32,000 bases of DNA from Dehalococcoidia bacterium (GTDB taxonomy: Bacteria > Chloroflexota > Dehalococcoidia > Lucifugimonadales > UBA1127), in assembly GCA_965247615.1 (NCBI GenBank), contig OZ252022.1, positions 789,233 through 821,232 on the forward strand. The letters run 5' to 3'. The translations under genes and the position numbers were made by a program. The notes under the pieces were generated by a model that worked only from the letters and a program-made list of their open reading frames with translations, was not told where the DNA came from and made no database searches. Of the stretch, positions 1,527 to 31,890 are shown piece by piece (within the stretch, counting starts at the first letter, position 1; every line of letters begins with the position of its first letter).

Positions 1527-1639
1527 CTCTACCTTCAGAATACGAAATTAGTGGGGGATGAGATTCACGCGCCGCGGCCCTATACTATCCCCACCATCCC
1601 CCGCGGACCCGGAATCCAGAGCGGCGAGGCAGGAGGCCC

Positions 1640-2458: not shown

Positions 2459-2548
2459 GTAAGCCCCACGTGGACTGCGCCCCTCCACCCAGCGCGGCGG
2501 CTCCGGGGCGGCCGCTCACCCTGACGCACTCGAAGGGCGCGGGCGCGG

Positions 2549-4431: not shown

Positions 4432-4492
4432 GCCGTCGGCGCCGGTTCCTAGCGCGCCTACCCGCGCAGACCGCTGACCGCTGACCGCAAAG

Positions 4493-4530
4493 GAAGGCGC
4501 CAGCCCATCGGATGGCGCCTTCTCTCGTCT
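4493..4530 (+). terminator. Rho-independent-type terminator hairpin after the dienelactone hydrolase gene
   Basis: Perfect 10-bp stem GAAGGCGCCA (4493-4502) / TGGCGCCTTC (4513-4522) with a 10-nt loop, followed by TCTCGTCTGTC. It lies in a convergent gap. Confidence 0.6.
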
Positions 4531-4565
4531 GTCGCGCCCCCTGCCCCGTGGGGCCCTGGCCCAGC

Positions 4566-5788: not shown

Positions 5789-5910
5789 GGCAATCCTGTC
5801 CGGGTGCGATAGAGGTTGGTTCTCCGCCGATGTCCGCATCGTCGCCGAGCGCAAGGAGCCGAAGAGCCCATCGTCGACAAGAACCCAGACGGGGAGCGTC
5901 CGGCGTCACA

Positions 5911-6225
5911 CTACCATATTGTAGTCTTACAGGAAAAGCCCGACGTCAACACCTGTCCTGCAACTCGCGGTGGGCTATCGTCCAACGGGATGGGGAGCAA
6001 GGTCTGGCTGCAGGTCCAGAACGAACCGCAAGGTGAAGTTTCTAAAGTTGTTAAGTTTGCTAAAGTGTGTACGGACACGGAATCTTCCGTAATGGGCTCA
6101 CTTTCAATGGGTATAGCCAGCGTGATGTCCACGTTGTCGTTCCTGTGGACGATGACCTCATCCACGACCATCTGCAGGATCTCCTTTCGCTGCTCGGGGG
6201 TCGATGTAAAGGGCGGAGTAATATG
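5911..6225 (-). pseudogene. C-terminal remnant of a large serine recombinase
   Basis: The minus frame reads ..FTSTPEQRKEILQMVVDEVIVHRNDNVDITLAIPIESEP... This matches the conserved tail of large serine recombinases (..ATFEQKRQLVELLIDRVIVTxGxVEIRYVIPT..) as I recall it. No resolvase catalytic or recombinase domain lies upstream. The GC drop begins here. Confidence 0.45.
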
Positions 6226-6247
6226 GACCGGCGAGGCGGGTGTGAAG

Positions 6248-6388
6248 GATGTACAAGGTGGAACTGTACGTTCGGGTGCGCCGGGCCTGCATGGTGGAGG
6301 GGATGAGCACTCAGGAGGCTGCCCGGGTGTTCGGTCTGCACCGGGACACGGTGGGCAAGATGCTGGAGTACTCGGCGCCGGAGGGCTG
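6248..6388 (+). pseudogene. N-terminal (HTH) remnant of an IS21-family IstA transposase
   Basis: Below the ORF-track cutoff. It reads MYKVELYVRVRRACMVEGMSTQEAARVFGLHRDTVGKMLEYSAPEG*, the characteristic IstA N-terminus, ending after 46 codons. No remainder of istA or istB follows. Confidence 0.7.
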
Positions 6389-6687
6389 AGGGCTTGTTAT
6401 TGTAATAAGAAATCTTCGCTGAGCTGCGGTAACATCGTCTGATCTCGAAAGCCTGGCACTGGCCTACCATGCTGCGAGTACCAGCTAGCCGGGTTTGAGC
6501 TTCCCACTAAGCGGACGTGGAGACCGTGGAAGACCGGTTGCGCCGGGAAGGGTTGGTGAAGCGTCAACGGATTCTCCCTGCGTCCGGCTGGTGCTGAGAA
6601 GCAGGCTGGTTAGATTAGAGTGGATCCTGAATAGCGACAATCCCTCACGTCATCCAGTTCTCGAAAGGAGGCGGAGGGGGAGGCAAA

Positions 6688-6867
6688 ATGACCCTGAGCA
6701 GACCGCCGGCGGCGGAACACTACCCGGCAGCGGGACAGACAGGGAAACCCATGTGCGGCTCCCTGCCCAGGAACAGCGAGCAAACCTTCAGGGAACCCCC
6801 CGGGAACGATTCCGGCATCCGGGAGAGGAACTGCGGGAGATGCATCATCGTCCTGAAACAGACCTGA
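6688..6867 (+). CDS. Hypothetical 59-aa Cys-containing small protein
   Basis: Below the ORF-track cutoff. GAAAGGAGGCGGAGGGGGAGG precedes the ATG. Product is MTLSRPPAAEHYPAAGQTGKPMCGSLPRNSEQTFREPPGNDSGIRERNCGRCIIVLKQT. I recognise no family. Confidence 0.25.
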   Translation: MTLSRPPAAEHYPAAGQTGKPMCGSLPRNSEQTFREPPGNDSGIRERNCGRCIIVLKQT

Positions 6868-6957
6868 AGAGATCGCCCGGGCGATCCAGTGGTTCACGGA
6901 ATCGGATCCCGCCTAGGATATTGCCCCGGCTGCTCCAGACATGATCGTGAGGTATCA

Positions 6958-7641
6958 ATGAATCCTTGGCAGTTGATCGGCCGGGCCCAAACCCCTGGCG
7001 GAGGAGCGGAGCTCGTTTTGTACCAACGTGACTCTGAGTTCTCGCTCAGAGCGGATAACCTGGAACTCATGAACAGCTGGGTTTATGGGTCAGAAGAAGC
7101 CATGGCCAGACTGGGCTGTCAGAACTTGGCAAAACGGCCGAGGGCTCGCGTTCTGATTGGCGGTCTGGGAATGGGCTACTCGGTGAGAACGGCGCTGGAC
7201 ATCCTTGGCGAGGATGCCCGGGTGGTGGTCGCGGAGCTGGTGCCAGCCGTGGTTGAATGGAACCGGGGAGTGCTTGCCGATTTGGCCGGCCGACCTCTTG
7301 ACGACCGCCGGACTGAACTCCATGAAGCCGACGTTATCCAGTTGATAACGGCCGCCGGAGGTGACTACGATGCCATCATGCTTGATGTCGACAATGGCGC
7401 GGAGGCGATGGTCCGAAAGGGCAACAACTGGCTTTACAGCCTGCCGGGGCTGATCGCCACCTACGCGGCGTTGCGGCGCGGCGGGGTATTGGCGATATGG
7501 TCTGCCGGTTCTCAACCGCCATTCGTCAGACGTTTGCGCCGTGCCGGTTTCGAGGTGGATGAAGTCAAGGTGCGGGCGCGTGGTGGAAGCAGCCGCAAGG
7601 GAGGCGCACATCATGTCGTCTGGATTGCCACGCGCGGTTGA
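6958..7641 (+). CDS. Spermidine-synthase-like (PABS-fold) class I SAM-dependent methyltransferase family protein
   Basis: Internal ATG of ORF 6889-7641 with GTGAGG SD. Motifs are ELMNSWVYGSEEAMA, the SAM motif I VLIGGLGMGYS, DAIMLDVDN and GGVLAIWS. Confidence 0.7.
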   Translation: MNPWQLIGRAQTPGGGAELVLYQRDSEFSLRADNLELMNSWVYGSEEAMARLGCQNLAKRPRARVLIGGLGMGYSVRTALDILGEDARVVVAELVPAVVEWNRGVLADLAGRPLDDRRTELHEADVIQLITAAGGDYDAIMLDVDNGAEAMVRKGNNWLYSLPGLIATYAALRRGGVLAIWSAGSQPPFVRRLRRAGFEVDEVKVRARGGSSRKGGAHHVVWIATRG

Positions 7642-7833
7642 TGGAGGACAGCGTTGAATGGTGCTGGCGAATTGGCCTATCACATGCCGAATGCCGCCGA
7701 GACAGTTGAGGCTCCATACACTGCGGCTGAGCGCCTTACCTTTCTTCCGCAGCCTGTTAGGATACCCGCTGACGAACTGAGCGTCCGATCATGCATCGAA
7801 CCGCATCGCGGGGGCATTTCAGGAGGAAAGTCA

Positions 7834-8568
7834 ATGTCTGCTAAGTTCAGACAACGCCACATGAGAGTGATGGAGTTGAACGAAAACGACGTTGCATCTC
7901 AGATACGAATGAACCATGGCCGTGAGCTTGAAGTTGTCGATGCCGCCCTCGATCAGATTCTCCAAGGCTTAGATGCTTTCGCCTATGTGAAGCAACGACC
8001 AGATAGCCGACTGGAAGATGCCCAAATGTTCCTTGCCGTGAGAAGTTTCAATTCACTGCACATTGCCAGACAGTTATTGGAACGCGGCTACTACCAGCAG
8101 GCGTCGGCACTGGTACGGATGGTCATGGAGGACCAGCTTGTTGCAGAAGACGCAGAAACCCATCCTCCAACGTTGGACGCGCTACTCGATGATAAAGGAT
8201 CTATCAGCAGTGGAGACCTGACCTACGGCAAAATGGCTGAACGAATTTCACCCGAAGCCAAAAAAGCGTGGGATGAGAAATACGGAGACCTCAGCGAAAG
8301 AGCCGCACACCCACGGCGTCTAAGCCTGTTGTTTCTCACAACTGTACGGCGGACTGTACGCCCTGGTGGTCACTACGATGAAGTACAAGTGAAGTTGACG
8401 TTCCTCTATCTCCTAGAGCAACTTGGGCAGGTGCTACGTACAGTTGGTCTCCTGACAGCGAATGTAGAAAGCCCTTGGGCTGAAGGAGCTAGGCCGGCAC
8501 TCAGGGATATGACGGCTCTCTATCGAGAAATAGTTGAGTGGTTTGAACGGAAAGTACAGGTGGATTGA
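7834..8568 (+). CDS. Hypothetical protein, DUF5677-like helical protein
   Basis: Internal ATG of ORF 7654-8568 with a perfect AGGAGG 7 nt upstream. Lower GC than the flanks. The pattern AVRSFNSLHIARQLLERGYYQQASALVRMVMED ... YGDLSERAAHP resembles DUF5677 as I recall it. This assignment is tentative. Confidence 0.55.
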   Translation: MSAKFRQRHMRVMELNENDVASQIRMNHGRELEVVDAALDQILQGLDAFAYVKQRPDSRLEDAQMFLAVRSFNSLHIARQLLERGYYQQASALVRMVMEDQLVAEDAETHPPTLDALLDDKGSISSGDLTYGKMAERISPEAKKAWDEKYGDLSERAAHPRRLSLLFLTTVRRTVRPGGHYDEVQVKLTFLYLLEQLGQVLRTVGLLTANVESPWAEGARPALRDMTALYREIVEWFERKVQVD

Positions 8569-8749
8569 ACACGTATCCCTAGGCATTGACATCACGTCGG
8601 TGGGAGAAAATGAATGTTGAGACTTGTCAGGAGGTGGCTGGCGAGTTGGGGAGTGACCGAAGAAGAACGTCTGGCTGGGGCGAGTGCGGGCCCAGGGCGC
8701 GGAGGCGGGGGCCGGTCCGTGGTTCGACACAGTCACGCGGACGATATCG

Positions 8750-8815
8750 TCCAGTTGACAGGGATCGAACCAGTCATGAGGGAGACGACTCATCTATCCC
8801 GGCTCGTCTAGCTCA
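8750..8815 (-). other. tRNA-like fragment (T-arm only), possible att-site remnant
   Basis: The minus strand contains ACTGG-TTCGATC-CCTGT (GGTTCGATCC T-loop signature) preceded by an ATGAG/CTCAT hairpin. No complementary 5' acceptor strand, no proper 7-nt anticodon loop and no D-arm are present. Confidence 0.2.
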
Positions 8816-8997
8816 GCTCCGGACGGCCTAGCCGGGTTCGGTACCTAGGCTGTTCGCCACGCCATTCCCTACGGCCCCACCCTCTCCGGCAGGCACGCTA
8901 CTGTCTAGCAATCTTGAATGGACCCAAAGCGACCGCCCACGAGTACCTGAGTTTTCCGTTGCTATTGTGTCTGTCGAATGAAGGTTCTCGATTTTGT

Positions 8998-9255
8998 CCA
9001 GCATGGTGGGTCTACCTGAACGGAGTGAAGCTGGACTTCAGCCGGCCGGGCAAGCCTACGGACAATGCCTTCATTGAGGCGTTCAACGGACGCTTTCGGC
9101 TGGAGAGTCTCAACGAGAACTGGTTCCTCTCCCTGGACGTCGCCGAGGAGAAAGTGGAAACCTGGCGGAGACAGTACAATGGGGAGAGGCCCCACAGTGC
9201 GCTGAACAGCCTGTCCCCGAGGGAGTTTGCGGCATTGGCTACAGAGGCGGATTGA
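8998..9255 (+). pseudogene. C-terminal remnant of an IS3-family transposase (OrfB, rve integrase core)
   Basis: Contains [36 protein letters not shown]...[23 protein letters not shown], the conserved end of IS3 OrfB. The DDE core and orfA are absent. Confidence 0.8.
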
Positions 9256-9320
9256 CCCGCAAGGCTCGCACTGAGCCCGGTACAAGAAATGGGGCAAGAT
9301 CACCTGCTTGCCGGACCAAC

Positions 9321-10940
9321 ATGGCAGGTGGTACAACTACTGGGGGCAGCTCAAGACACTCCCAACCCTCTCTGGTCAGAGCAAAACCCTTGCGAATAAC
9401 TGCCTTCCTCGCCTTGACGCTCCTCGCGCTCACCGCCTGCACTCAGGCAACGCCGACCCCTGCGCCGACCTTCTCTCCGATCTCACGGGCAGCCCCGACG
9501 CCTTCGCCAACCCCAGCGCCGACCCCCACCCTAACCCCGACCCCTACATCTACGCCTACTCCTACACCTACACCTATTCCGACGCCTTCACCAACCCCAA
9601 CGCCGACCCTCACGCCAACCCCGACTCCTACATCTACGCCTACTCCGACCCCCACCCCCACTCCTACGTCCACGCCTACTCCAACACCCATCCCGACACC
9701 CACGTTGGAACCACTCCCCTCGCCTATGCCCACCGCAACAGTACTACCGGATGCGCAAGAGACGTTGACCAATCGTGCCCCGGTCGTATCCATGGTCCAT
9801 GAGTCGTTGGCCATCCAGGGGGGTATCCCTGTACTGCTGAACGCCAATGCCTATGACCCGGACGGCGACCAGCTGACATACGAGTGGACGGTGACGCCCA
9901 TGGTCGGTCAGCTGGTGCAGGCGTTCCCCCGCTACCCCTCCTGGTTCGCACCTGAGGTCACTTCAACTCAAGTCGTCACGATAACGCTGACGGTGAGAGA
10001 CGCCCACGGCGGCCACTCATCCGCCGACATGGAGATTGTGGTGCTCCCACTGGCGGAGGAGATACCGACGCCGCCCGATGGCCACATGGAGAGGCTGGCT
10101 TTCGCCATGGAACGGATGCTCGCGTCACCTTCACAGCATGATGCATCAATGACCGTAGAGGAACAGAGTCCCTGGCTCAGACAGGCATGGGACTTCGCCA
10201 CCAAGTCGGGAAACTATGCTGAAATGGATTACGAATTTGAAATCGAGTTCCAAGGGCAGATTCCGATCGTCATTCTGGAGTGCTATCCCGTAGAACCTGG
10301 TGAATACCTTGTCCCCTGCGCTCCATCGAGGCTGGACTTTCCTGAGTCACGCCTGGATGACAAGTACATAGTCGGGGAGTTCTCGCACATCTTGTGGACC
10401 GCGATGGCGCACGAACTTGCACATATCTTCACAATGTCCTCTCTCGTTTCACCCGACGACGGCCAGGAACCACGCCCTGACCTCAACGCAATCTCAATGC
10501 TGGCGCTATTCAAGCAACATAGCGACCCGTCTAACTACTACTGCGACGGCAGAGAACTGCTTGCGGACACGCTCAAAGTTAAAGCGTTCCCAGCAACCTG
10601 GGGCGGATATTGGTTCAGCTGTAAGGGTGAGCATCACCCTCCTGACGAAGACGGTGCTCATGCCATCGTGCAAAGTCTTCTTGACGGCCAATACCCAGAC
10701 TGGTTCATGGAAGAATATGGACTGCCGGATGGCGGGTTTGCTTTGCGTCGAGTCTGGACAGACGTCATCGCCCTTGAAAAACTCGACCCGTTCCCGAAAC
10801 AGCTACTGGTGTGGCAACTGCGGGGTGCCTTCGGCGCCGGATATTGCTCGTACGAGGCGGCCGCGGACTCGGCGTACCGGAGAGCGCATCTCCCCAACCC
10901 CTGGGCAACCGGTGACACAGACGAGGCCGGATGCGGCTAG
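9321..10940 (+). CDS. Secreted lipoprotein: PT-rich linker, PKD/cadherin-like domain and an HExxH (putative zinc metallopeptidase) domain
   Basis: Signal peptide with lipobox ..[12 protein letters not shown]. About 90 aa of Pro/Thr linker. [27 protein letters not shown] is a PKD-like domain. HELAH lies at 10410-10424. The start is uncertain (ATG 9321 has no SD) and an IS3 remnant abuts the 5' end. Confidence 0.7.
9450..9728 (+). repeat. Degenerate tandem ACN-CCN (Thr-Pro) coding repeat
   Basis: Encodes TPTPAPT...[58 protein letters not shown], with a roughly 78-nt higher-order unit present twice. Confidence 0.9.
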
Positions 10941-13574: not shown

Positions 13575-14003
13575 CTAGTGGTGCTGGGCCAGCTCCACGT
13601 AGACGTCGTTGACCGCGCCCGGCTGGAGGTAGCCGATGAGCCCGCCCATCAGCCCCAAGCGCGGTGTCTCGTCGATGAGCGGGACGCCCAGCCCCTGCAG
13701 CGCCTTGAGCCGCTCCCCCACACCCTCCACCTCGAAGCAGATGTGGTGCAGCCCTTGCCCGCGGCTCGCCACAAAGCTGCCGATGAAGCCGTCGGGCCTC
13801 GTGGACTGCAGCAGCTCCAGGTGCGTCTCTCCCACTGGAATGAAGCAGCCCCGGACCCCACGCTCCTCCAACTCGATGATCTCCCCCGCCTCCAGGCCAA
13901 AGAGCTCCCGGTACCGCTGAATGGCCGCCTCCAGGTCGTTCACCGCGATGCCCACGTGATGCACCAGGCGCGTCGGCGCCGGCGCCCGCAGTGGAAGCGT
14001 CAT
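13575..14003 (-). CDS. VOC-family protein, methylmalonyl-CoA epimerase-like
   Basis: Internal ATG (MTLPLRAP..) with GGGAGG SD. Contains HHVGIAVNDLEAAIQRYRELFG, GETHLELL and GLHHICFEV. Confidence 0.8.
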   Translation of the reverse strand: MTLPLRAPAPTRLVHHVGIAVNDLEAAIQRYRELFGLEAGEIIELEERGVRGCFIPVGETHLELLQSTRPDGFIGSFVASRGQGLHHICFEVEGVGERLKALQGLGVPLIDETPRLGLMGGLIGYLQPGAVNDVYVELAQHH

Positions 14004-14072
14004 AGCAATCCTCCCAGCCGCTCGACTGCCAGGTCCATCATCGCCGCGCCCACCGCCCATCGCGGCAGCGAC

Positions 14073-15233
14073 CTAGCGCCTGATGCCGTGGTGCTCGCCC
14101 AGGTACTCCCGCATGTGGGGTTGGGTGCTCCGCTTGGCGCACTCTTCCTCGAAGACGGTCAAAACGCGCGGGTCCTCGTCCTCGTACTCCACCTGGCGGC
14201 CCCCCTTCTTGATGGAAACGTCGCCGCCGTAGCCCTCTCCCAGGTTGCGCTTTCTGCTGTCCAGCACCGGGTACCGCCGCCCCCCGAAGCCGAAGACCAG
14301 GTAGCGCGCCGGCACGCCGGACGTGTTGAAGTGCTGGTGGTATGTCGGCCCGTCCGGCGGCGCGAACAGCACCCCCGGGTGCCAGTCCACGCGGTTCGTC
14401 GCCACGGGGTTCTCCCCCTCCAGCCACAGCGACGAGTACCCGTGCCCCGTCACGCAGAAGATGTGCGCCCCTGCGTCGTGGCGGTGCGCCTTCTTGTATG
14501 TCCCCGTCGGAAACTCCGAGATGTGGCAGTGCATCGAGCTGTCCGCGAAGGCAAAGTTGATCATGTTGCCCCCGGCTCCCCGCGCCTCCCACTTCGGCAG
14601 GTCGAAGGTCTGCATGTCCGGCACAAAGTTGGTCTCCCACTGGTGCTGCCCCGGCCGGTTTGGCAGGAACTCGCCCTCGCCCCGGAAGAAGCGCTCGTCG
14701 CCGAAGCGCTCCGGGAAGCTGTGCTGGTTGTCGTAGATGAACGACGGGTTGTGGAAGATGTTGAAGATGACTGGCAGGTTCGTCACCGCCGCGAAGCGCG
14801 CCGGCTCCGTTCCCGAGCCGTTGAAGTGCTGGTGCTTCGCGTTCATCGGGATGCCCATGGCGCTGCCCGCGCCCCACTCGAACGTGTGCTTGGCCCCGTT
14901 CGGAAGCTCCACCGTCGTCGCGCCCCGGCCTGACACCACGTGGATCAGCTCGTCGTGCATGTGCTGCTCGGGGTTGAGCTGCCCCCCGGGCGGTATCTCG
15001 GACACGTAGGCGCTCAGGTAGTCGCTCTTCCCCGTCAGGTGCACGTACGCGCCCCGGCCCCCCATCCGCTCCCACGGCTCCAACGGCACGTTCACGCAAT
15101 CGACGGCGTACTCCTCCAGCACCGGGACCCCCTCCGTCTCCAGGAACTCGCGGTAGGGGTCTCGGGCGTAGTACGTGGGCAGCAGCTCCGGGTCCGGGGC
15201 CTTGTCATAGTCGGGTTTCGGCATCGTCGTCAT
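14073..15233 (-). CDS. Bicupin protein (gentisate-1,2-dioxygenase-like fold)
   Basis: Two cupin modules: ..EQHMHDELIHVVSGRG.. and ..AHRHDAGAHIFCVTGHG... GAGGAGGAG SD. Substrate unknown. Confidence 0.7.
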   Translation of the reverse strand: MTTMPKPDYDKAPDPELLPTYYARDPYREFLETEGVPVLEEYAVDCVNVPLEPWERMGGRGAYVHLTGKSDYLSAYVSEIPPGGQLNPEQHMHDELIHVVSGRGATTVELPNGAKHTFEWGAGSAMGIPMNAKHQHFNGSGTEPARFAAVTNLPVIFNIFHNPSFIYDNQHSFPERFGDERFFRGEGEFLPNRPGQHQWETNFVPDMQTFDLPKWEARGAGGNMINFAFADSSMHCHISEFPTGTYKKAHRHDAGAHIFCVTGHGYSSLWLEGENPVATNRVDWHPGVLFAPPDGPTYHQHFNTSGVPARYLVFGFGGRRYPVLDSRKRNLGEGYGGDVSIKKGGRQVEYEDEDPRVLTVFEEECAKRSTQPHMREYLGEHHGIRR

Positions 15234-15322
15234 TGCTTCTCCTCCTCTTCAGATCTGGGGCTTGCGCGCCAATTCAGAGAATCGCCAGTCCCGCGCCCTG
15301 TTTGGGTGATCTTCCCCCATCG

Positions 15323-16535: not shown

Positions 16536-17789
16536 CTACGTCACCGCCGCCTGCACATACGTCGCAAGCACCTTCTCGATGTCCGCGTGCGCCTTGCTCT
16601 CCCCCGCCTCCTGCGGCACGTACTTCCTCGGCGCAGACCCGTGCCCGAAGCCCCGCACCGGCTCCAGAGGCAGCTCGGGGAACGCGGCCCCGGACCCCTC
16701 GTGGATCACGTTCATGGGCTCGCCCCCGTCTTGGACGATCTCCATCTGCTGCTTGAGCATGCGCCGGAACAGGATGACCCCCTTGTCGGACTCGCCCAGC
16801 TTCTCCTTCGTCCGGTCCGCCAGCGGGCCCTGCGTGATCCAGGCCATGTAGTCCTGGTTGAACTGAATGCTGATGATCAGCCGCCCGTCGTCGCCGTACA
16901 GCGGTACGTGGTAGTACGGCACCCGTTCCTGCGGCGCCACGTCGGCCCCGGGGGCCGCGCGGAACGTGTACACGGACACGTGGTACGTGTGTGTGTCGTC
17001 CATCGGGACCCGGAACTGCAGCGTTCCGCGCTGCGGCGACCCCACCTGCAGGATGTTCGGGAAGATGATTGGGTGCCCCACCTTCCACAGGTCGTCCTCC
17101 TCCGTCCCCCCTTCCATCACCCGGCGCTTGATCACCCCGTACTCCGTCACGTCAAAGCCTATCTTCTTGTGCCGCTCCACCGCCGGGAGCTCTGACCGGG
17201 GCACCCCGGAGCGCTCCCTGACCCAGTTGCTCTGGTACCGGTGCAGCCACTCCGTGTGTACCGGGTCCAACGAGTTCTCCTGGCACTGCAGCCAGTTGCA
17301 CGGCAGCTCCGTGATCGCGATGTCCCGCGCCACGTTCTCCCACGCCAGCGGCCCCCACAGCGGCAGCACCGGCGCCGGCGACGGCCCCAGGTACGCGAAA
17401 ACCAGCCCGCCCGTCTCCTGCACCGGGTACGACACCGCCGTCACCCGGTCCTTGAACGTGCTGTCCGGCGCCTCCGCGGGCATCTCCAGGCACCGCCCCG
17501 TCTCGTCGAACCTCCACCCGTGGTACGGACAACGCAGCCCCTGCGCCTCCGGTATGCCGTACAGTAGGTTCACGCGGCGGTGCGGGCACGACTCCTGGAG
17601 CAGCCCCAACGTCCCGCTCCGGTCCCGGTACAGCACCAGCGACTCCCCCAGAATTCGCACCGACTTTGTCGGGTTCTCACGCAGCTCCTCGCTCGCGCCG
17701 ATGGGGTGCCAGTACTGGCGCAGCAGATCGCCCATGGGTGTGCCCGGTCCCACTCTGGTCAGCCGTTCGTTCTCCTTGGTCGATAGCAT
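16536..17789 (-). CDS. Rieske [2Fe-2S] non-heme-iron oxygenase, alpha-subunit type (paralog 1)
   Basis: Internal ATG (MLSTKENERL..) with AGGAGG SD. The Arg-rich extension in ORF 16536-17918 is implausible. Rieske motif is CPHRRVNL...CPYHGWRF. Confidence 0.85.
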   Translation of the reverse strand: MLSTKENERLTRVGPGTPMGDLLRQYWHPIGASEELRENPTKSVRILGESLVLYRDRSGTLGLLQESCPHRRVNLLYGIPEAQGLRCPYHGWRFDETGRCLEMPAEAPDSTFKDRVTAVSYPVQETGGLVFAYLGPSPAPVLPLWGPLAWENVARDIAITELPCNWLQCQENSLDPVHTEWLHRYQSNWVRERSGVPRSELPAVERHKKIGFDVTEYGVIKRRVMEGGTEEDDLWKVGHPIIFPNILQVGSPQRGTLQFRVPMDDTHTYHVSVYTFRAAPGADVAPQERVPYYHVPLYGDDGRLIISIQFNQDYMAWITQGPLADRTKEKLGESDKGVILFRRMLKQQMEIVQDGGEPMNVIHEGSGAAFPELPLEPVRGFGHGSAPRKYVPQEAGESKAHADIEKVLATYVQAAVT

Positions 17790-17823
17790 CGTTCCGCCTC
17801 CTGTCGTCTGTCTTGGTTCTCGC

Positions 17824-19161
17824 CTACTTGCCGGGCTGCACCTGTCCGTAGCCCGCCAGCTTCGTCTTCGTCTCCTCCGGCGTCGCGGCCCCTGCGTTCT
17901 TGGCCCGCTCCTGCGCAATGGGGCTGTACTTCACCGCCCGCCCCGTCCCGACGCCGCCCGTGCGCCTCGGTATCGCGCCGTCACCCCGCTCGCGGTAGCC
18001 CTTGCCCTCCTGGCTCTCCGCCGGAATCCGGTTGCAGATGTTCGACGCCGGGTCTCGGAACGTGTTCATCGGGTCCCCGCCGTCCTCCACGATCCGCATC
18101 TGCTCCCGCAGCAGCCGCCGGTACAGGATGATCCCCTTGTCCGACTCCCCCAACCGCTCCAGCCACCGCGTCGAGACCGGCCCCTGCGACATCCACGCCA
18201 TGTTGTCCTGGCCGCTGTTGTTGTCCAACACCTCCCAGATGGGCAGGCCCCGCTCGTCCACCCCCGGCAGCGGCACCTCGTACAGCGGGATCTCCTCCGG
18301 CGCCTGCTCCGGCGCCGTCTCCCCCGCCGGCATCTCGTGCACGTTGTACCACCAATACAGCGTGTGCGTGTCGTCTATCGGCACGCGTATCTGGTCCAGC
18401 CGCAGTATGTTGGGGAACACAATCGGGTGGCCGACGCGCCACAGCGGGCTCGTCTCGTCATCCCCCTCCAGCACGCGGCGCTTGATGATCCCGTACTCGA
18501 ACACGTCGAAGCCAATCTTCGTGTGACGCCTCACGTTCCCCTTGTTGCGCCAGTACCTCCCCTCCTGCTCTCCCTTGCCCAGCCGCTCGATGACGTAGTT
18601 CGAAAAGACCTGGTGCAGGTGCTCAACGTGCACCGGGTCCAGCGAGTTCTCCATGATCTGCATCCAGTTGCACGGAAGGACCGCCCAGCCGATGTCCCGC
18701 TGCACGTTGTCCTTCACAAACGCCTCCCAGTGGGGCACCAGGGGCCTCGGCTCCGGCCCCAACCAGGCCCACACCATGCCGCCCAGCTCCTCCACCGGGT
18801 ACGACTTGGCCGTCACCCGGTCCTTGAACGTGCTGTCCGGCGCCTCCGCCGGCATCTCCAGGCACTGCCCTGTCTCGTCGAACAGCCACCCGTGGTACGG
18901 GCAGCGCAGCCCGTGCTCCTCCGGGATGCCGTACAGCAGGTTCACCCGGCGGTGCGGGCACGATTCCTGAATCAAGCCCAGCGTCCCGCTCCGGTCCCGG
19001 AACAGCACCAGGTCCTCGCCCAGCAGCCGCACCGCCTTCGTCGGGTTCTCCTTCAGCTGCGACAGCGCGGCGATGGGCTGCCAGTAGCGCCGCATCAGCT
19101 CTCCCATCGGCGTGCCGGGGCCAACCTCCGTCAGCATCTGGTTCTGTTCCTTCGTCAGCAT
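17824..19161 (-). CDS. Rieske [2Fe-2S] non-heme-iron oxygenase, alpha-subunit type (paralog 2)
   Basis: MLTKEQNQMLTEVGPGTPMG... with CPHRRVNL...CPYHGWLF. CAGGAGA SD. Lies 34 nt upstream of paralog 1. Confidence 0.85.
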   Translation of the reverse strand: MLTKEQNQMLTEVGPGTPMGELMRRYWQPIAALSQLKENPTKAVRLLGEDLVLFRDRSGTLGLIQESCPHRRVNLLYGIPEEHGLRCPYHGWLFDETGQCLEMPAEAPDSTFKDRVTAKSYPVEELGGMVWAWLGPEPRPLVPHWEAFVKDNVQRDIGWAVLPCNWMQIMENSLDPVHVEHLHQVFSNYVIERLGKGEQEGRYWRNKGNVRRHTKIGFDVFEYGIIKRRVLEGDDETSPLWRVGHPIVFPNILRLDQIRVPIDDTHTLYWWYNVHEMPAGETAPEQAPEEIPLYEVPLPGVDERGLPIWEVLDNNSGQDNMAWMSQGPVSTRWLERLGESDKGIILYRRLLREQMRIVEDGGDPMNTFRDPASNICNRIPAESQEGKGYRERGDGAIPRRTGGVGTGRAVKYSPIAQERAKNAGAATPEETKTKLAGYGQVQPGK

Positions 19162-19510: not shown

Positions 19511-20389
19511 ATGAGCACCAGCACCATCTACCTTGGCGATAATCTGAAGATTCTGCGCGGAACGCCATCGGAGTCTTTCCCTCTCATCTACATCGACCCC
19601 CCGTTCAATACAGGGAAAGTTCAGGCCAAGACACGCCTGCGAACGACTCGGGATGCAAACGGCGATAGGACCGGGTTTCAGGGGCAGCGCTACCGGACAG
19701 AGAAGGGCGAAACGCTCTCGTTCGTTGACGTGTTTGACGACTACCTCGCGTTTCTCACGCCGCGCTTGGAGGAGGCCCACAGGCTTCTCACTCCAACCGG
19801 CTCGCTCTATTTCCATATCGACTATCGGGAGGTCCACTATTGCAAGGTGCTCCTCGATAGAATCTTTGGGCGGGACAGCTTCCTGAACGAGATAATCTGG
19901 GCCTACGATTTCGGAGGTAGGTCGAAGCGCCGTTGGCCGGCGAAGCACGACAATATCTTGGTCTATGCAAAAGACCCTGAGCGCTACACGTTCAATACTG
20001 ACGCAATAGACCGAATCCCCTACATGGCTCCTGGACTGGTTGGACCGGACAAGGCGGCGCGGGGCAAGCTGCCCACGGATGTCTGGTGGCACACAATAGT
20101 CCCCCCTGGCGGCAGGGAAAGCACAGGCTACGCCACGCAGAAGCCCCTGGCTATCATGAAGCGCATCATAGCGGCTTCATCGAATCCGGGGGATGTTGTG
20201 ATGGACTTCTTTGCCGGCAGCGGTACGACCGGGATGGCCGCCCGTCAGCTTGGTAGAGCATTTATGCTCATAGACAACAATGAGGAAGCATTGAAGGTAA
20301 TGGCCAAGCGATTTGATGGTCTGCCGGACGTCCGGTTTATTGACTTCGACCCGACGCCCTATCAATCAGGCCATCTGGTGTTGGCCTGA
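19511..20389 (+). CDS. Beta-class (motif IV before motif I) N6-adenine/N4-cytosine DNA methyltransferase, solitary
   Basis: DPPF (motif IV) at 19595-19606 and FFAGSGTTG (motif I) at 20207-20233. Visibly lower GC than the neighbours. No adjacent endonuclease ORF. Confidence 0.85.
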   Translation: MSTSTIYLGDNLKILRGTPSESFPLIYIDPPFNTGKVQAKTRLRTTRDANGDRTGFQGQRYRTEKGETLSFVDVFDDYLAFLTPRLEEAHRLLTPTGSLYFHIDYREVHYCKVLLDRIFGRDSFLNEIIWAYDFGGRSKRRWPAKHDNILVYAKDPERYTFNTDAIDRIPYMAPGLVGPDKAARGKLPTDVWWHTIVPPGGRESTGYATQKPLAIMKRIIAASSNPGDVVMDFFAGSGTTGMAARQLGRAFMLIDNNEEALKVMAKRFDGLPDVRFIDFDPTPYQSGHLVLA

Positions 20390-23263: not shown

Positions 23264-24334
23264 CTACTGCCACCTGGCGAAGCACCACCCGCCGCCCGTG
23301 CCCGCCGGTGAACGGTACACCGGCACGTACTCCAGCAGCTCCATCTCCAGGTGCTCCACCGTCGCCGATGCCGCAATCCAGTTCTGTATCTCAGACGCCG
23401 CCGAGTTCAGCTGCCGCCGCGGCAGCGACCCCAACAACGCTCCGTCCCGCTCCCGCATCCCCTTCAGCGCCAGCTGGTCCACCTCCTCGTCCACCACAAA
23501 GTGGCTCAGCCCCCCGGATCCCACCACGCACACCCGCTTGTCGCTGTCCCAGGACTTCACCGCCTCGCCGATCGCCTTCCCCAGCGCGTACGACCGCCGC
23601 GGCGTCGGCTGGTTCGGCGGGTAGCACGTGTTCTGGAACACCGGCACTATCGGCACCGTCTTCCCGTTCATGATCCGCCGCACGATGAACGCGAACCCGT
23701 GCGGCAGCCCCTGCCGCCGCGGCTGCGTCGTCCGCGTGAAGACCGGCTCATGCCCGTTCCCTTCCCTCTGGTACCAGCGCGACACGTCCCCGCCGTACTG
23801 CTCCTTCACCTCGCAGAAGTGCGCCACGTCGAACCCGCCGTCTATCAGCGACTCTATGAGGTGCAGCCCCAGCGCCGAGTCCACCGGCACGTCCATCTCC
23901 ACGTCCCCGTAGCCCCACATCGAGTGCCGGTACGGTGACGTGGACCCCTCCGGCATCCGGTTCGGGATGATTGGTACGCTGTTGCCCCAATATATGGCGA
24001 AGGACGGCATCACGTGGTCGAAGAACCACTCGTCCTGGTCGTCGCTGATGATGACCACCACGTCCGGGTTGGCGTCCGCCATCGTCTGCTCCAGCGTCGC
24101 GATGGCCTTCTGGCACGCCTCGTACTGCCCGTCGAAGCGCTCCTGCGTCAGCAGCCCGGCAATCTTCGGGTCCGCCTTCGCCAGCACCTCCTCGTACGTC
24201 GCCGAATACCCGGTGCTCGGGTCCACGATGTCCGTGTTTCTCTTGTCGCCCTCCTGCGGCAGCGACCACATGTCCGGCGCCAAGCTCAGCATCGGGCTGT
24301 GGGATGTCCCGATTCCCAGCACTATCTCGGCCAT
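23264..24334 (-). CDS. Class III extradiol ring-cleavage dioxygenase (LigB family)
   Basis: MAEIVLGIGTSHSPML is the N-terminal His motif of the family. Also DVVVIISDDQDEWF and GSGGLSHF. GAGGAGGAG SD. Confidence 0.8.
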   Translation of the reverse strand: MAEIVLGIGTSHSPMLSLAPDMWSLPQEGDKRNTDIVDPSTGYSATYEEVLAKADPKIAGLLTQERFDGQYEACQKAIATLEQTMADANPDVVVIISDDQDEWFFDHVMPSFAIYWGNSVPIIPNRMPEGSTSPYRHSMWGYGDVEMDVPVDSALGLHLIESLIDGGFDVAHFCEVKEQYGGDVSRWYQREGNGHEPVFTRTTQPRRQGLPHGFAFIVRRIMNGKTVPIVPVFQNTCYPPNQPTPRRSYALGKAIGEAVKSWDSDKRVCVVGSGGLSHFVVDEEVDQLALKGMRERDGALLGSLPRRQLNSAASEIQNWIAASATVEHLEMELLEYVPVYRSPAGTGGGWCFARWQ

Positions 24335-28373: not shown

Positions 28374-28379
28374 TATAAT
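28374..28379 (+). promoter_or_regulatory. Perfect -10 hexamer TATAAT upstream of the DUF3090 gene
   Basis: Reads ggcTATAATgg, 45 nt before GTG 28424. The -35 (TCGTGA at 17 nt) is weak. Confidence 0.4.
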
Positions 28380-28423
28380 GGAGTTGCTTCACGCCAACTC
28401 CCATCGAATACAGGAAGGAAGCC

Positions 28424-28933
28424 GTGCCTCCTCGCCAAGAGCTAGGTCGAGCTATCAAGGTCGAAGCCGGCGCCCTCGGTCCCCCCGGCCAGCGGCGCTT
28501 CTACCTCTACGCCGAGGCTGAGGGCGGGACCGCCACCCTCTGGCTGGAGAAGGAGCAGCTCTTCAACCTCGCCATGACCGCCCAACGTGTCCTGGCGGCC
28601 CTCACGCAGCGCCAGGAATCCCCGCCCCCGCCACCCGCGGAAGACCTCGGAGCGCTCACCCTCGATTTCAGAGTCGCCCGCCTCTTCCTATCCCAAGAAG
28701 CCGAGGGCGGTCTCTTCCTCCTCGGCGCCCACGAGATCGCGGAGGAGCCCCCCGCCGACTCGCCCACCGCAACCATTGAGACCACTGCGGACCAGCTCAA
28801 GGTGTTCTCAGACCAGGCCCTCGAGGTGTGCGCCGCAGGTCGGCCCCCCTGCCCCCTCTGCGCCGCCCCAATGGACCCCGCAGGCCACGTCTGCGTCCGA
28901 AGCAACGGCCACTACGCCCGCGATACGCGCTAA
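28424..28933 (+). CDS. DUF3090 family protein (TIGR03847-like)
   Basis: GPPGQRRFYLYAEAEGGTATLWLEKEQL.. and the C-terminal CPLCAAPMDPAGHVCVRSNGH match the family signature. GTG start with GGAAGGAAG SD. Confidence 0.8.
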   Translation: MPPRQELGRAIKVEAGALGPPGQRRFYLYAEAEGGTATLWLEKEQLFNLAMTAQRVLAALTQRQESPPPPPAEDLGALTLDFRVARLFLSQEAEGGLFLLGAHEIAEEPPADSPTATIETTADQLKVFSDQALEVCAAGRPPCPLCAAPMDPAGHVCVRSNGHYARDTR

Positions 28934-29033
28934 CACGCCCGAACGCGGCGTGCGCCTCCGGTCCCCGCCGCCCGACCTCGCCGTAGGTGCGTCCCTTGTA
29001 GGAGCCCGACTCTGCCGTACCTGCCCGAAACCA

Positions 29034-29062
29034 TTGACAATCCGGCTTGTCATGGCTAATGT
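29034..29062 (+). promoter_or_regulatory. Near-consensus sigma70 promoter (TTGACA-N17-TAATGT) with an overlapping inverted repeat
   Basis: TTGACA at 29034-29039 and TAATGT at 29057-29062. The inverted repeat TGACAA-N6-TTGTCA overlaps the -35 and spacer. Confidence 0.55.
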
Positions 29063-29104
29063 CATCCTAAGCTTGCAGCTCATGCACGGGAAGAGGTTGT
29101 AGAT

Positions 29105-29248
29105 ATGGCTGAGGCATACTGCTTCAAGTGCCGCGAAAAGCGCGAGATCCAGAATCCCGCCCAGGTCACCCTGAAGAACGGCCGCCCCGCCACCCAGGGC
29201 GTCTGCCCCACCTGCGGGACCAAGGTCTTCCGCATCGGCAAGAGCTAG
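29105..29248 (+). CDS. DUF5679-type small zinc-ribbon protein (47 aa)
   Basis: Below the ORF-track cutoff. Product is MAEAYCFKCREKREIQNPAQVTLKNGRPATQGVCPTCGTKVFRIGKS*, with CxxC...CxxC and the conserved TLKNGRPA..G.CP.CGTKVFRIG core. Confidence 0.8.
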   Translation: MAEAYCFKCREKREIQNPAQVTLKNGRPATQGVCPTCGTKVFRIGKS

Positions 29249-29275
29249 ACCGCTTCCCTTCGTCCCTGGCCGGCC

Positions 29276-29965
29276 CTATGACGCAGCCCGGATGGGCAGC
29301 TTCCCCGCCACGCCCAAGCGGCTGATCAGGCCCTCCGGGTTTGCCCGCAGGACGATCGCCGCCTCTGCCAGCCCCAGCCCGGCGCCCCGCGCTATCTTCT
29401 CCGCCAGCGACTCTGTCAGAAGGTCCTCCGGCGCGTGCGCGTCCGAGTCCACCACCATGCGCGCCCCTACCGCCCTCCCGAGACTCGCCACGTGCCCGTT
29501 CGTCAGCGAGTGCCCTCGCCGCGCCGACAGCTCCAGCATCGTCCCACCCTCCGCCGCCAGCCGCGCCTCCTCTTCGCTTAGAAGACCCGGGTGCGCCAGC
29601 ACGTCCACCTCCGGGCTCTCCAGCGCCGCCCGGTTGGTCCCCTCCGCCACCGGCTCCACGATGCTCTCCCCGTGGCAAATCACAATCTGGGCCCCCAGGG
29701 ACCGCGCTCGCATTGCTGCCTCGTGGATCTTCGCCGGCGGCACGTGCGTCAGTTCCACCCCTGGAATGGCCAGGATCCCCATCTCCTCGGTCGCCATCTC
29801 GCACTCGCGCACCAGGATCTCGAGCACCCGCTCCTGGTCCCACAGCCCCACGTGGTCCGTCACGGCAATGGCGGTGTACCCCTTGACGCAGGCCCGCTGG
29901 ATGAGCTCCACCGGCGACAGGACGCCGTCGCTCAGGAACGTGTGCGTGTGAAAATCGTACAGCAT
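29276..29965 (-). CDS. PHP-domain metal-dependent phosphoesterase
   Basis: MLYDFHTHTFLSDG and AIAVTDHVG are PHP motifs I and II, with SDAHAPEDL late in the protein. GAGAGGAGAGG SD. Confidence 0.85.
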   Translation of the reverse strand: MLYDFHTHTFLSDGVLSPVELIQRACVKGYTAIAVTDHVGLWDQERVLEILVRECEMATEEMGILAIPGVELTHVPPAKIHEAAMRARSLGAQIVICHGESIVEPVAEGTNRAALESPEVDVLAHPGLLSEEEARLAAEGGTMLELSARRGHSLTNGHVASLGRAVGARMVVDSDAHAPEDLLTESLAEKIARGAGLGLAEAAIVLRANPEGLISRLGVAGKLPIRAAS

Positions 29966-30034
29966 CGGCCTCTCCTCTCAGTGTGCCGGTTCAAGCCTAC
30001 CACAGGAGGCTGGCTCTCACCCACGCCTGGGGCT

Positions 30035-30062
30035 TTGCCCGCGGCCCAGACCGGCGTATAGT
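30035..30062 (+). promoter_or_regulatory. Candidate promoter (TTGCCC-N16-TATAGT) for the DUF2203-rhodanese pair
   Basis: TTGCCC at 30035-30040 and TATAGT at 30057-30062, 36 nt upstream of ATG 30098. Confidence 0.45.
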
Positions 30063-30097
30063 AACCACGCAACGCCGATTCCGTCCCCTGGAGTCAC

Positions 30098-30502
30098 ATG
30101 GCCACCCGCCGCTTCTTCACCTTGGACCAGGCCCTTGAGCTCCTCCCCTGGCTGCGAAGCCAGTTCGCCGCCATTGCCGACTCCTCGGAGCGCCTCGCCG
30201 AGCTGCAACAGCAGATCGACGACCTCGCGCACCACCGCCAACGCAACGGCCACTCCAACCTCGGCAGCATCATGCACCAGAAGCGCCAGGAGGCACGCCA
30301 GATCACCGGCGACGTCCAGGCCGTCCTGACGACTATCGAGCGCCGCGGCATCCTCGTTCGCGACGTCAACCGCGGCCTCGTCGACTTCCCCGCCCGCCGT
30401 GAAGACGGCCAGGAGATCCACCTCTGCTGGCTCAAGAACGAGGACACCGTCGGCTTCTGGCACCTCCCCAACGCCGGCTTCGCCAGCCGCCAACCCATCT
30501 AG
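30098..30502 (+). CDS. DUF2203 domain protein
   Basis: RFFTLDQALELLPWL and GILVRDVNRGLVDFPARREDGQEIHLCWLKNEDTVGFWH match the DUF2203 pattern. Confidence 0.75.
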   Translation: MATRRFFTLDQALELLPWLRSQFAAIADSSERLAELQQQIDDLAHHRQRNGHSNLGSIMHQKRQEARQITGDVQAVLTTIERRGILVRDVNRGLVDFPARREDGQEIHLCWLKNEDTVGFWHLPNAGFASRQPI

Positions 30503-30555
30503 CCTGCAGCCCGCGCCGCCGCCGCCGACGGCAACCAGGAAAGAGAGGAGCACCC

Positions 30556-31395
30556 ATGACCGCCCCAACACAGGATCAGGGATACGCGCGCCCCGAGCTC
30601 TTGGTCGACACCGACTGGCTCCAGCAGCACCTCGACGACCCGAAGGTCCGCGTCATCGACTGCGACCCCATCGACGCATACCGCAGGGCCCACGTCCAGG
30701 GCGCCGTCGGACTACCCGTCCACCAGTTCCTCAAGGACTCCGCCGACTCCATCCACGTCATGCCCCCGGACCAGTTCGCCGCCCTCATGGGAAGGCTCGG
30801 CGTCGAAAACGACACCACCGTCGTCACCTACGACGCCGCCGGCAGCCTCCACGCCGCCCGCGTCTGGTGGGTCCTCAGCTACTACGGCCATCCCAACGTC
30901 CGGGTGCTCAACGGCGGCTGGCAAAAGTGGTTCGCAGAGGGCCGCCCCGCAAGCCTCCAGCCCGCCGCTGTTGCCCAGACCAGCTACACCCCCGCGGCCA
31001 ACCCGGACCTTCTCTGCACCCTGGACTACGCTAAGTCCTGTGTTGAACGAGAAGGCGTCGCCCTTCTCGACGTTCGCTCCGACGGCGAATGGACCGGCGA
31101 GAACGCCCGCGGCAACGCACACAGCGGCCACGTCCCCGGCGCCGTGCACCTGGAGTGGCTCAACTTCATGACCAGGGACGAACCCCGCGTATTCAAGCCC
31201 GCCAGCGAGCTCCGCGCCATGCTCGCCGAGGTGGGCGTCACCCCCGAACAAGAGGTCGTCACCTACTGACAGGGAGGCATCCGTGCGGCGCACGGCGTGT
31301 TTACCCTCAGCCTCCTCGGCTACGACCGCGTTCGCAACTACGACGGCTCCATGGGCGAGTGGGCCAACCGCGACGACACCCCACTGGTGAAGTGA
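30556..31395 (+). CDS. Two-domain rhodanese (thiosulfate/3-mercaptopyruvate sulfurtransferase family) with an in-frame TGA (31267-31269) at the catalytic Cys position; either a Sec-decoding candidate or a nonsense pseudogene
   Basis: The ORF track ends at ..EQEVVTY*. The same frame continues QGGIRAAHGVFTLSLLGYDRVRNYDGSMGEWANRDDTPLVK* to the TGA at 31393-31395. This restores the active-site loop [C]QGGIRA and the C-terminal NYDGSxxEW motif, for a typical total of about 279 aa. GAGAGGAG SD. Confidence 0.8.
31272..31316 (+). promoter_or_regulatory. Stem-loop immediately 3' of the in-frame TGA (candidate bacterial SECIS)
   Basis: Inner perfect hairpin CCGTGC-GGC-GCACGG at 31281-31295 starts 11 nt after the TGA. 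A possible outer helix pairs GGAGGC (31273-31278) with GCCTCC (31310-31315). Function is untested. Confidence 0.25.
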
Positions 31396-31435: not shown

Positions 31436-31576
31436 GTGCGGGGAGCTGGCTCTGGCCGTGGTATATCGAACTACTACCTGCGCGACCCGGAGTCGCCGCA
31501 AGAGTTGGCCTGGGTCGAGTCGGCTTCACTCGCCGCGCTGGCCGCGTACCCCTGGGACCCCGAGCCAGAGCAGTGA
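31436..31576 (+). CDS. Possible short or truncated antitoxin ORF overlapping mazF by GTGA
   Basis: This frame has no ATG; a GTG lies at 31436 without an SD. It reads ..ISNYYLRDPESPQELAWVESASLAALAAYPWDPEPEQ*. The stop TGA (31574-31576) overlaps the toxin GTG (31573-31575). Confidence 0.2.
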   Translation: MRGAGSGRGISNYYLRDPESPQELAWVESASLAALAAYPWDPEPEQ

Positions 31577-31890
31577 GACGGGGCGAGATCCCGTGGGCCG
31601 ACCTGCCCCGGCCCACGGGAAGGCGACCCGTAGTGTTGCTGTCTCGTGACCAGGCCTACGCCGTTCGGGAGTTCGTCATCGTCTCTCCGCGTACATCGCG
31701 CCGTGGAGGCCTGATAACCGAGGTTGAGCTAGGGCCTCAGGACGGACTGGCTAGACCCTCAGTCGTGAACCTTGACGTCATGAACACCGTGTCCAAGCAA
31801 CAGCTTCAGGAGCGGATTGTCGAGCTGAGTCCGGGGAAGCTCCGGTCCGTCGAGGCCGCGATCCATTTCGCCTTGGGCCTGGAAACCTAA
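31573..31890 (+). CDS. mazF: MazF/PemK-family type II toxin (mRNA interferase)
   Basis: RRGEIPWADLPRPTGRRPVVLLSRD, ..IVSPRTS.. and ..SVVNLDVMNTVSKQQLQERIVELSPGKLRSVEAAIHFALGL follow the PemK fold pattern. GTG start. Confidence 0.75.
   Translation: MRRGEIPWADLPRPTGRRPVVLLSRDQAYAVREFVIVSPRTSRRGGLITEVELGPQDGLARPSVVNLDVMNTVSKQQLQERIVELSPGKLRSVEAAIHFALGLET

Follow-up and report, generated by a model that had tools for sequence, protein, structure and literature searches.

The 32,000-nucleotide (nt) stretch of Dehalococcoidia bacterium DNA analysed here (contig OZ252022.1, positions 789,233 to 821,232, hereafter referred to as the window) very probably carries a true selenoprotein gene. Judging from the sequence, this gene encodes a 279-residue rhodanese of the tandem-domain type in which codon 238, an in-frame UGA, is read as selenocysteine (Sec) with the help of a functional selenocysteine insertion sequence (SECIS). 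This reading rests on the position of the UGA, on its conservation among relatives, on the coding constraint that acts on the tail beyond it and on the RNA-level constraint that acts on a hairpin directly downstream. The system is not a new kind, since the family was already predicted in 2005, and the window gene is a further member of it. The gene is laid out as follows.

30543-30550 (+): Shine-Dalgarno-like GAGAGGAG, 5 nt 5' of the ATG at 30556, read directly from the sequence
30556-31266 (+): rhodanese codons 1-237, covering the N-terminal non-catalytic domain and most of the C-terminal catalytic domain and ending ...EQEVVTY
31267-31269 (+): in-frame UGA, codon 238, the proposed Sec codon at the catalytic-nucleophile position, placed by alignment and conservation
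31270-31392 (+): codons 239-279, which complete the active-site loop (QGGIRA) and supply the C-terminal end of the catalytic domain; their translation depends on UGA decoding
31281-31295 (+): SECIS-like hairpin, with stem 31281-31286 (CCGUGC), loop 31287-31289 (GGC) and stem 31290-31295 (GCACGG)
31393-31395 (+): true terminator TGA, with no hairpin 11 nt 3' of it

Reading past the first TGA in the same frame adds 41 codons, QGGIRAAHGVFTLSLLGYDRVRNYDGSMGEWANRDDTPLVK, and restores a product of 279 amino acids (aa). When Cys is placed at the TGA, this protein matches the Pfam family PF00581 in two stretches (E = 7e-39), the N-terminal, non-catalytic rhodanese domain being best matched over aa 19-127. 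Its best structure match is PDB entry 1UAR from Thermus thermophilus (E = 3.7e-54, aligned over aa 9-279). The presence of two rhodanese-homology domains in a chain of about 280 aa makes the protein a tandem-domain rhodanese. In the C-terminal domain of tandem rhodaneses, the catalytic nucleophile is the first residue of a loop of six, C-x-x-G-x-[RT]. In the window this loop reads U-Q-G-G-I-R and occupies the catalytic-loop position of tandem-domain rhodaneses (PF00581, COG2897-type). Indeed, the UGA column coincides with the catalytic Cys of CRIAERSSH / CRIGERSSH in the solved rhodaneses 1UAR, 8K55 and 3HWI, as seen in the alignment at this column (...VVYCRIAERSSH, ...VAYCRIGERSSH).

An earlier note on this DNA had described a 237-codon open reading frame (ORF) ending ...EQEVVTY-TGA, a same-frame continuation, a second TGA and a restored protein of about 279 aa, and every one of its coordinates holds. 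It had also placed the TGA at the position of the persulfide-forming Cys, which agrees with the three structures and with the residue found in 110 of the 120 best homologues. Its caution that an intact frame is weak evidence is one we share for this one sequence, in which 41 stop-free codons are ordinary at 67% G+C. By contrast, the comparative data take the case far beyond chance.

A protein search returned 6675 relatives, and the loop residues were scored in the best 120 of these. Cys stands in a C-Q-[GAV]-[GA]-[IVL]-R loop in 110 of the 120. The remaining ten are ORFs from the databases that all end ...V-x-T-Y; nine have 233-244 aa, and one is a fragment of 160 aa. Eight of the ten are not near-identical to the window protein (62-73% identity). 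Metagenome loci were retrieved in ten cases, and in all ten the catalytic codon is TGA, followed by 41-47 conserved codons and then by a real stop. The best homologues therefore form a Sec/Cys pair of 110 Cys-type and 10 TGA-type members, and the orthologue alignment that had been proposed as a check yields Cys or TGA at the catalytic position, together with a hairpin that is invariant in the TGA-type genes and hence shows no covariation.

Genomes were scanned as well, one per GTDB species, with the pattern TGA-CAR-GGN-GGN-ATH-CGN-GCN-GCN-CAY-GG. At least 120 species-representative loci have TGA at the catalytic codon. By record label, the 120 matches listed comprise about 98 from Dehalococcoidia, SAR202 or other Chloroflexota, 15 from Binatia, 2 from Entotheonellaceae and 1 from Methylomirabilota, besides 1 'Deltaproteobacteria' and 3 Enterobacteriaceae. 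All of these 120 are tandem rhodaneses, full-length wherever the retrieved stretch spans the whole gene, with 40-66% identity to the window protein and '*' at the catalytic codon. Overall, the TGA is shared by 130 other loci that match the scan pattern (134 including paralogues), and pairwise identity among the Sec-type proteins has a median of 46% and a minimum of 30%. The three Enterobacteriaceae entries (L047, L067 and L115) are metagenome-assembled genome (MAG) records labelled 'uncultured Enterobacteriaceae bacterium'; their Sec-rhodanese tails, …LRLLGFD[RQ]VRNYDASWAEWGNREDLP…, match Binatia-type sequences, which suggests that the label is probably wrong.

The tail that follows the TGA has 40-47 codons in all complete genes. 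Downstream of the hairpin, its entropy at the three codon positions is 0.76 / 0.70 / 1.47 bits (127 genes), compared with 1.11 / 0.95 / 1.62 bits 5' of the TGA. This signature, at least as strong as that found 5' of the TGA, indicates that the tail is under protein-coding purifying selection. The UGA is thus conserved, and coding constraint continues past it.

Some genomes hold more than one such gene. In four Dehalococcoidia genomes a second Sec-type rhodanese lies near the first, at a distance of about 0.1-1.1 kb, with about 43% identity to the window protein and the loop U-QAGLRAAHG. These tandem paralogues have the same TGA, the same 11-nt spacer and the same CCGUGCGGCGCACGG hairpin, and are located as follows.

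L012, about 4116-4949 (-): Sec-rhodanese paralogue
L065, about 880-1689 (-): Sec-rhodanese paralogue
L089, about 4045-4869 (+): Sec-rhodanese paralogue
L093, about 2408-3241 (-): Sec-rhodanese paralogue

In addition, the Binatia MAG JBFWXH has two Sec-rhodanese copies on separate contigs (L034 and L088).

The hairpin lies within the I-R-A-A-H-G codons. An 11-nt spacer (31270-31280) separates it from the UGA, and its loop begins 17 nt past that codon. The stem is made of five G-C pairs and one U-A pair; a stem of 6 bp, the 11-nt spacer and the 17-nt loop distance had all been described correctly, whereas the all-GC composition claimed for the stem does not hold. Folded by itself, the 15-nt hairpin reaches -8.0 kcal/mol, a stability equalled by 5 of 200 shuffles. 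Its 42-nt context folds at -20.2 kcal/mol (z = -2.9), and the 76-nt fold around the TGA reaches only z = -1.24. The published model of the bacterial SECIS (bSECIS) allows a loop of 3-9 nt and a stem of 4-16 bp (Zhang & Gladyshev 2005, summarised in PMC13188914 Fig. 2A), and further asks for G in the first two loop positions, a UGA-to-loop distance of 16-37 nt and a minimum free energy of -7.5 kcal/mol or lower (PMC13188914 Fig. 2A). With its 3-nt loop opening in GG, 6-bp stem, 17-nt distance and energy of -8.0 kcal/mol, the window hairpin falls within every one of these limits. This agreement and the frozen synonymous sites of relatives bear out the earlier proposal of a SECIS candidate, and the accompanying remark that the spacing is near the lower end of the range was also accurate. 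A reading of the hairpin as a transcription terminator was rejected, as a T-run is missing and no terminator-like site on the + strand coincides with it.

The scan pattern imposed no third-position constraint on the codons around the hairpin, so their third bases could be compared freely. Within the hairpin these bases hardly vary (C 125/126, T 125/126, G 126/126, G 126/126 and C 126/126). All four bases occur at the third position in the pair of glycine codons shortly before it (first codon C 61, T 37, A 21, G 7; second codon C 91, A 15, T 14, G 6). Of 129 distinct Sec-type genes, 127 have the exact codons ATC CGT GCG GCG CAC, that is 15 identical nt, whereas usage elsewhere in the same genes, where ATC makes up 61% of ATH, CGT 13% of CGN, GCG 31% of GCN and CAC 69% of CAY, predicts them in 0.5% (0.005). 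The two exceptions are single uncompensated changes. Furthermore, the glycine codon that follows the hairpin codons prefers GGA (94/126), which adds a seventh U-A pair, whereas C or T is favoured at the two glycine codons before the hairpin. Such freezing of synonymous sites indicates that the hairpin is selected at the RNA level.

Cys-type genes served as a control, a small one of seven DNA sequences, five of which came from the scan of metagenome contigs and two from look-ups. The peptide I-R-A-A-H-G is kept in all seven (QGGIRAAHG in six, QAGIRAAHG in one). The exact hairpin is present in two of them, L131 and L136, and in the other five the stem is broken by different codons; three of these five were folded, and none did better than shuffles. 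Hairpin presence thus differs between Sec-type and Cys-type genes with a Fisher p of 1.2e-6. The two Cys-type genes with TGC and the exact hairpin codons have them at 4465-4493 (+) in L131 and at about 990-1020 (+) in L136, and a third, L137, is one base off. L136 encodes P0002, the Cys-type protein nearest to the window protein. By their sequences, L131, L136 and L137 look like recent Sec-to-Cys conversions that have kept a fossil SECIS.

A mechanism can be proposed on this basis. SelB-GTP-Sec-tRNA(Sec) would bind the hairpin while the ribosome stands at the UGA, and Sec would be inserted; translation would then run on to the real stop at 31393-31395, which is free of a hairpin. In the enzyme, the selenolate in the loop U-Q-G-G-I-R would take up sulfane sulfur from a donor, for which thiosulfate, 3-mercaptopyruvate and a persulfide are candidates, and an Se-S intermediate would arise where rhodaneses usually form a cysteine persulfide. 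This intermediate would finally hand the sulfur to an acceptor. Homology does not allow the donor to be assigned, since the score against NF008557 is below the cut-off and the loop is unlike the CRIGERS-type loop of the best-matching structures.

Several points weigh against the selenoprotein interpretation. The 3-nt loop and the 17-nt spacing stand at the lower limits of the bSECIS model, and the extended lower stem predicted for the window is not kept across Sec-type relatives. Rfam has no matching family for the window at gathering thresholds, and only chance-level matches at E <= 10. Because the hairpin never varies, it offers no compensatory changes, and its support comes from invariance and not from covariation. 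The identical hairpin in two Cys-type genes means that the hairpin alone is not diagnostic. As for the machinery of Sec insertion, ARAGORN, which may miss the 8/4-structured tRNA-Sec of Chloroflexi, found the 32-kb window free of tRNAs and the retrieved loci, about 1 Mb in all, free of tRNA-Sec. Likewise, no SelA-, SelB- or SelD-like gene was found in the window or in the same 1 Mb of loci, which were searched by tblastn with approximate E. coli SelA, SelB and SelD probes. One tblastn match in L120, taken up as a SelB candidate, was discarded as a 624-aa TypA/BipA-like GTPase.

The unseen machinery, in the window and in these loci, speaks for decoding of the UGA without Sec, either through hairpin-stimulated read-through that inserts Cys, Trp or a similar residue, or through genome-wide reassignment of UGA. 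Downstream RNA structures can stimulate read-through in general. We nevertheless consider Sec-free decoding very unlikely. The stops of the 25 Pfam-supported window genes (369-31890) are TAG in 16, TGA in 5 and TAA in 4, in DNA of about 67% G+C, and the true stops of 129 Sec-rhodanese genes are TAG in 70, TGA in 32 and TAA in 27, in each case 40-47 codons past the internal UGA. As TGA ends genes in both sets, UGA is not reassigned genome-wide and its recoding is local. In addition, the recoded codon is that of the catalytic nucleophile, a position at which no residue but Cys or Sec would be workable. The Cys codons TGC and TGT are one mutation away and are used by most homologues, so that retention of the UGA and of a frozen hairpin calls for a benefit beyond that of Cys. 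The hairpin also fits the SelB-type bSECIS model (PMC13188914). Moreover, the Sec trait has been recorded in Chloroflexi (PMC1794560 Table 2), as has tRNA-Sec (PMC5389517), and very large selenoproteomes have been predicted in Methylomirabilota (PMC13188914); for the source genome itself this phylum-level literature is indirect evidence.

Two further observations concern the use of stop codons in the window. High-GC bacteria usually favour TGA as a stop; despite the high G+C, TAG leads among the stops of both the window genes and the Sec-rhodanese genes. Apart from that of the rhodanese, a systematic scan of the window found no in-frame TGA flanked on both sides by coding signal. A second selenoprotein gene at 13575-15248 (-) was considered and rejected, since the two same-frame ORFs there are parted by a TAG stop and the second is a glyoxalase gene in its own right.

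A nonsense mutation from TGC to TGA, which would leave a pseudogene or a truncated protein of 237 aa, is hardly credible. One base separates the codon from that of Cys, gene callers do report products of 233-244 aa, and the open frame beyond the TGA is of the length usual at 67% G+C. Against this stand the same TGA in 130 other pattern-matching loci from more than 120 species, at identities down to 30%, the purifying, third-position-biased pattern of the downstream codons and the frozen synonymous sites of the hairpin; a product ending before the catalytic loop would, in addition, be devoid of an active site. The preference given earlier to Sec over a nonsense mutation is thus sustained by the recurrence of the TGA and by the coding constraint on the tail.

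It is just as difficult to believe that the hairpin is a mere by-product of the I-R-A-A-H-G codons with no function in RNA. This peptide is conserved in Cys-type homologues too, two Cys-type genes have the identical 15 nt, and compensatory substitutions are absent among the 129 Sec-type genes. The by-product explanation fails, however, to account for the near-universal use of one codon set expected in 0.5% of genes, including CGT, which is rare elsewhere in them, for the stem-breaking codons with which five of the seven Cys-type genes encode the same peptide, and for the preference for GGA that extends the stem by a seventh pair. Finally, there is a negligible probability that base 31269 was misread or misassembled, a suspicion to which any single-base feature is open by default and for which nothing specific speaks here. 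Assemblies in NCBI, ENA and Logan record the exact 237-aa product, in contigs as long as 3.05 Mb; of the 31 members of its 90% cluster, the 15 that are listed all have 237 aa; and the sequence TAC TGA CAG GGA GGC ATC CGT GCG GCG CAC recurs in three independent assemblies made from different samples.

How Sec and Cys forms have replaced one another was addressed with a rough neighbour-joining tree of the N-terminal regions of 118 Sec-type and 105 Cys-type proteins. On this tree, which is midpoint-rooted and built from a biased sample with genome loci chosen for their TGA, parsimony requires at least nine switches between Sec and Cys, and the state at the midpoint root is U. Taken with the fossil hairpins of L131 and L136, the tree tentatively suggests repeated replacement of Sec by Cys. 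A wider reading can be built on it, according to which Sec would be ancestral in the Sec-rhodanese subfamily, Cys forms would have arisen by repeated replacement and left decaying fossil hairpins, the 15-nt SECIS would be portable or would have travelled with the gene, and the protein would use Se-S chemistry or act as a selenium carrier. Taken as a whole, we regard this reading as speculative and rather unlikely. Were Sec indeed ancestral, a single minimal SECIS found letter for letter in Chloroflexota, Binatia, Entotheonellaceae and Methylomirabilota would have to be portable across very different SelB proteins or to have been spread by gene transfer between phyla. The Se-S intermediate might then give these mostly aerobic degraders of organic matter a chemistry that Cys enzymes lack, or the protein might serve as a selenium carrier.

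Beyond the counts published so far, the present data add the spread of the family over at least 120 species, a letter-perfect 15-nt hairpin at a fixed 11-nt spacing and a systematic truncation in annotation. Public gene calls stop just before the active site and yield products of 233-244 aa that JGI names 'thiosulfate/3-mercaptopyruvate sulfurtransferase'. As such truncated calls occur in well over 100 species of abundant uncultured lineages (SAR202, other Dehalococcoidia and Binatia), both selenium dependence and sulfur-transfer capacity are under-counted there. The family also offers a clean test system, with one UGA, an invariant 15-nt hairpin and a fixed 11-nt spacing. Cys counterparts occur in nature both with the hairpin and without it, and several chromosome-level MAGs are available for studying co-occurrence with selABCD.

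The immediate neighbourhood of the gene begins with the following feature.

30098-30502 (+): DUF2203 gene (Pfam PF09969, E = 5.6e-31), 53 nt 5' of the rhodanese start

This gene is possibly co-transcribed with the rhodanese gene, and a promoter-like site lies near it at 30035-30062. The adjacency of DUF2203 and rhodanese genes is found in close relatives only (10 loci). At window positions 28379-30502 the gene string runs DUF3090, DUF5679 (47 aa), a PHP-domain gene on the opposite strand and DUF2203, followed by the Sec-rhodanese; the same string occurs in L002, L003, L017, L023, L032 and L139, all of them close relatives, and the four neighbours are functionally uncharacterised. Synteny of DUF3090, DUF5679, PHP and DUF2203 being limited to close relatives, the neighbourhood was set aside as a clue to function. 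Directly 3' of the rhodanese gene lies a PemK/MazF-type toxin gene (31573-31890, Pfam E = 8.8e-15), for whose product no database record was found. The 46-codon ORF in front of it (31436-31576) is possibly an antitoxin gene, either short or degraded. In the relative L002 a full pair of RHH_1 antitoxin and PemK genes is found at the equivalent place.

The other genes of the window encode enzymes of aromatic-compound catabolism, a CoA-transferase, a short-chain dehydrogenase/reductase and the DUF3090, DUF5679, PHP, DUF2203 and PemK proteins already mentioned; none of them belongs to the Sec machinery. Between 11173 and 25561 lies a cluster typical of the catabolism of aromatic or recalcitrant carbon. 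It includes two adjacent Rieske/LigXa-like oxygenases (16536-19161, -), a LigB-type ring-cleavage dioxygenase (23264-24334, -), two Amidohydro_2 proteins, two luciferase-like monooxygenases, a cupin and a glyoxalase, and is consistent with an organism of the SAR202 or Dehalococcoidia type. The stretch 5816-10940 has a G+C of 0.58, compared with 0.64-0.70 around it, and may be an acquired island. Three of its ORFs (5816-6442, 6889-7641 and 7654-8568) have no Pfam match, and one 562-aa protein has a weak match to a bacterial immunoglobulin-like domain (Big_9). Additionally, an N6/N4 DNA methylase gene (19511-20389, +; PF01555, E = 4.5e-48) has no obvious restriction-enzyme partner among its Pfam-annotated neighbours.

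Among known systems, the Cys-type tandem rhodaneses (1UAR and 8K55, with the thiosulfate sulfurtransferase entries 3HWI, 3AAX and 3HZU) align with the window protein over its full length at E = 3.7e-54 to 1e-40, and share its two-domain layout and the column of the catalytic residue. They differ in that the nucleophile is encoded by TGY there and by UGA here, and in that their loop continues R-I-[AG]-E-R-S in place of Q-G-G-I-R-A. Against the equivalog model of E. coli SseA (3-mercaptopyruvate sulfurtransferase, NF008557) the window protein scores 133.7 bits, below the cut-off of 250, and its sequence thus marks it as a relative of SseA and not as an equivalog. Two other families, NF041203 (rhodanese_LYCAU, the form 3 protein with a CxU motif) and NF040901 (ExtH, of a selenite/tellurite reduction operon), resemble it in being selenium-linked proteins of the rhodanese fold. 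The window protein scores 33.8 against 115 bits for NF041203, matching in the N-terminal domain only and with no CxU motif, and 77.5 against 200 bits for ExtH; it also differs from both in architecture and motif, and on these scores the window gene is a member of neither.

The hairpin may be compared with the SECIS elements of the E. coli fdhF/fdnG type and with the bSECIS consensus. It shares with them an intra-ORF stem-loop directly 3' of the UGA, a small apical loop opening in G-G and a spacing within 16-37 nt. The minimal SECIS of E. coli fdhF is reportedly the upper stem-loop, which is said to have to sit 11 nt past the UGA; the same 11-nt spacing is found in every member of the present family. 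In contrast to the E. coli element, the window hairpin is of unrelated sequence, has a triloop on a stem of 6-7 bp and no bulged U, and its lower stem is not conserved.

The closest counterparts are the Sec-containing 'rhodanese-related sulfurtransferases', which were predicted in 2005 from the Sargasso Sea (COG2897, three sequences, with a SECIS figure; PMC1088965) and found again in the Global Ocean Sampling data (PMC2398784). A 2026 review lists five rhodanese-like selenoprotein forms as 'Predicted with high confidence', apart from those 'Experimentally verified', a section of the table that holds no Sec-rhodanese (PMC13188914 Table 1). The earlier statement that Sec-rhodaneses are uncharacterised predictions from metagenomes is in line with these three sources. 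Forms 2 and 4 of the review are described as rhodanese-related sulfurtransferases of PF00581 with the motif UxxG (PMC13188914), and the window gene, a PF00581 member with a single Sec in U-Q-G-G, would correspond to one or the other, an assignment drawn from the description of these forms; the published representatives are MCY3690685.1, MBM9537886.1 and AACY01016424. The published proteins and the present ones are alike in belonging to PF00581, in their two-domain SseA/COG2897-type architecture and in the single catalytic Sec of U-x-x-G. Both have a small hairpin directly after the UGA with G in the apical loop, as well as many Cys homologues, and both come from marine or environmental uncultured bacteria, SAR202 MAGs being among the carriers found here. 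They differ in extent: the papers hold 3-8 sequences, whereas the family described here spans at least 120 species and at least four labelled lineages, with an invariant 15-nt hairpin.

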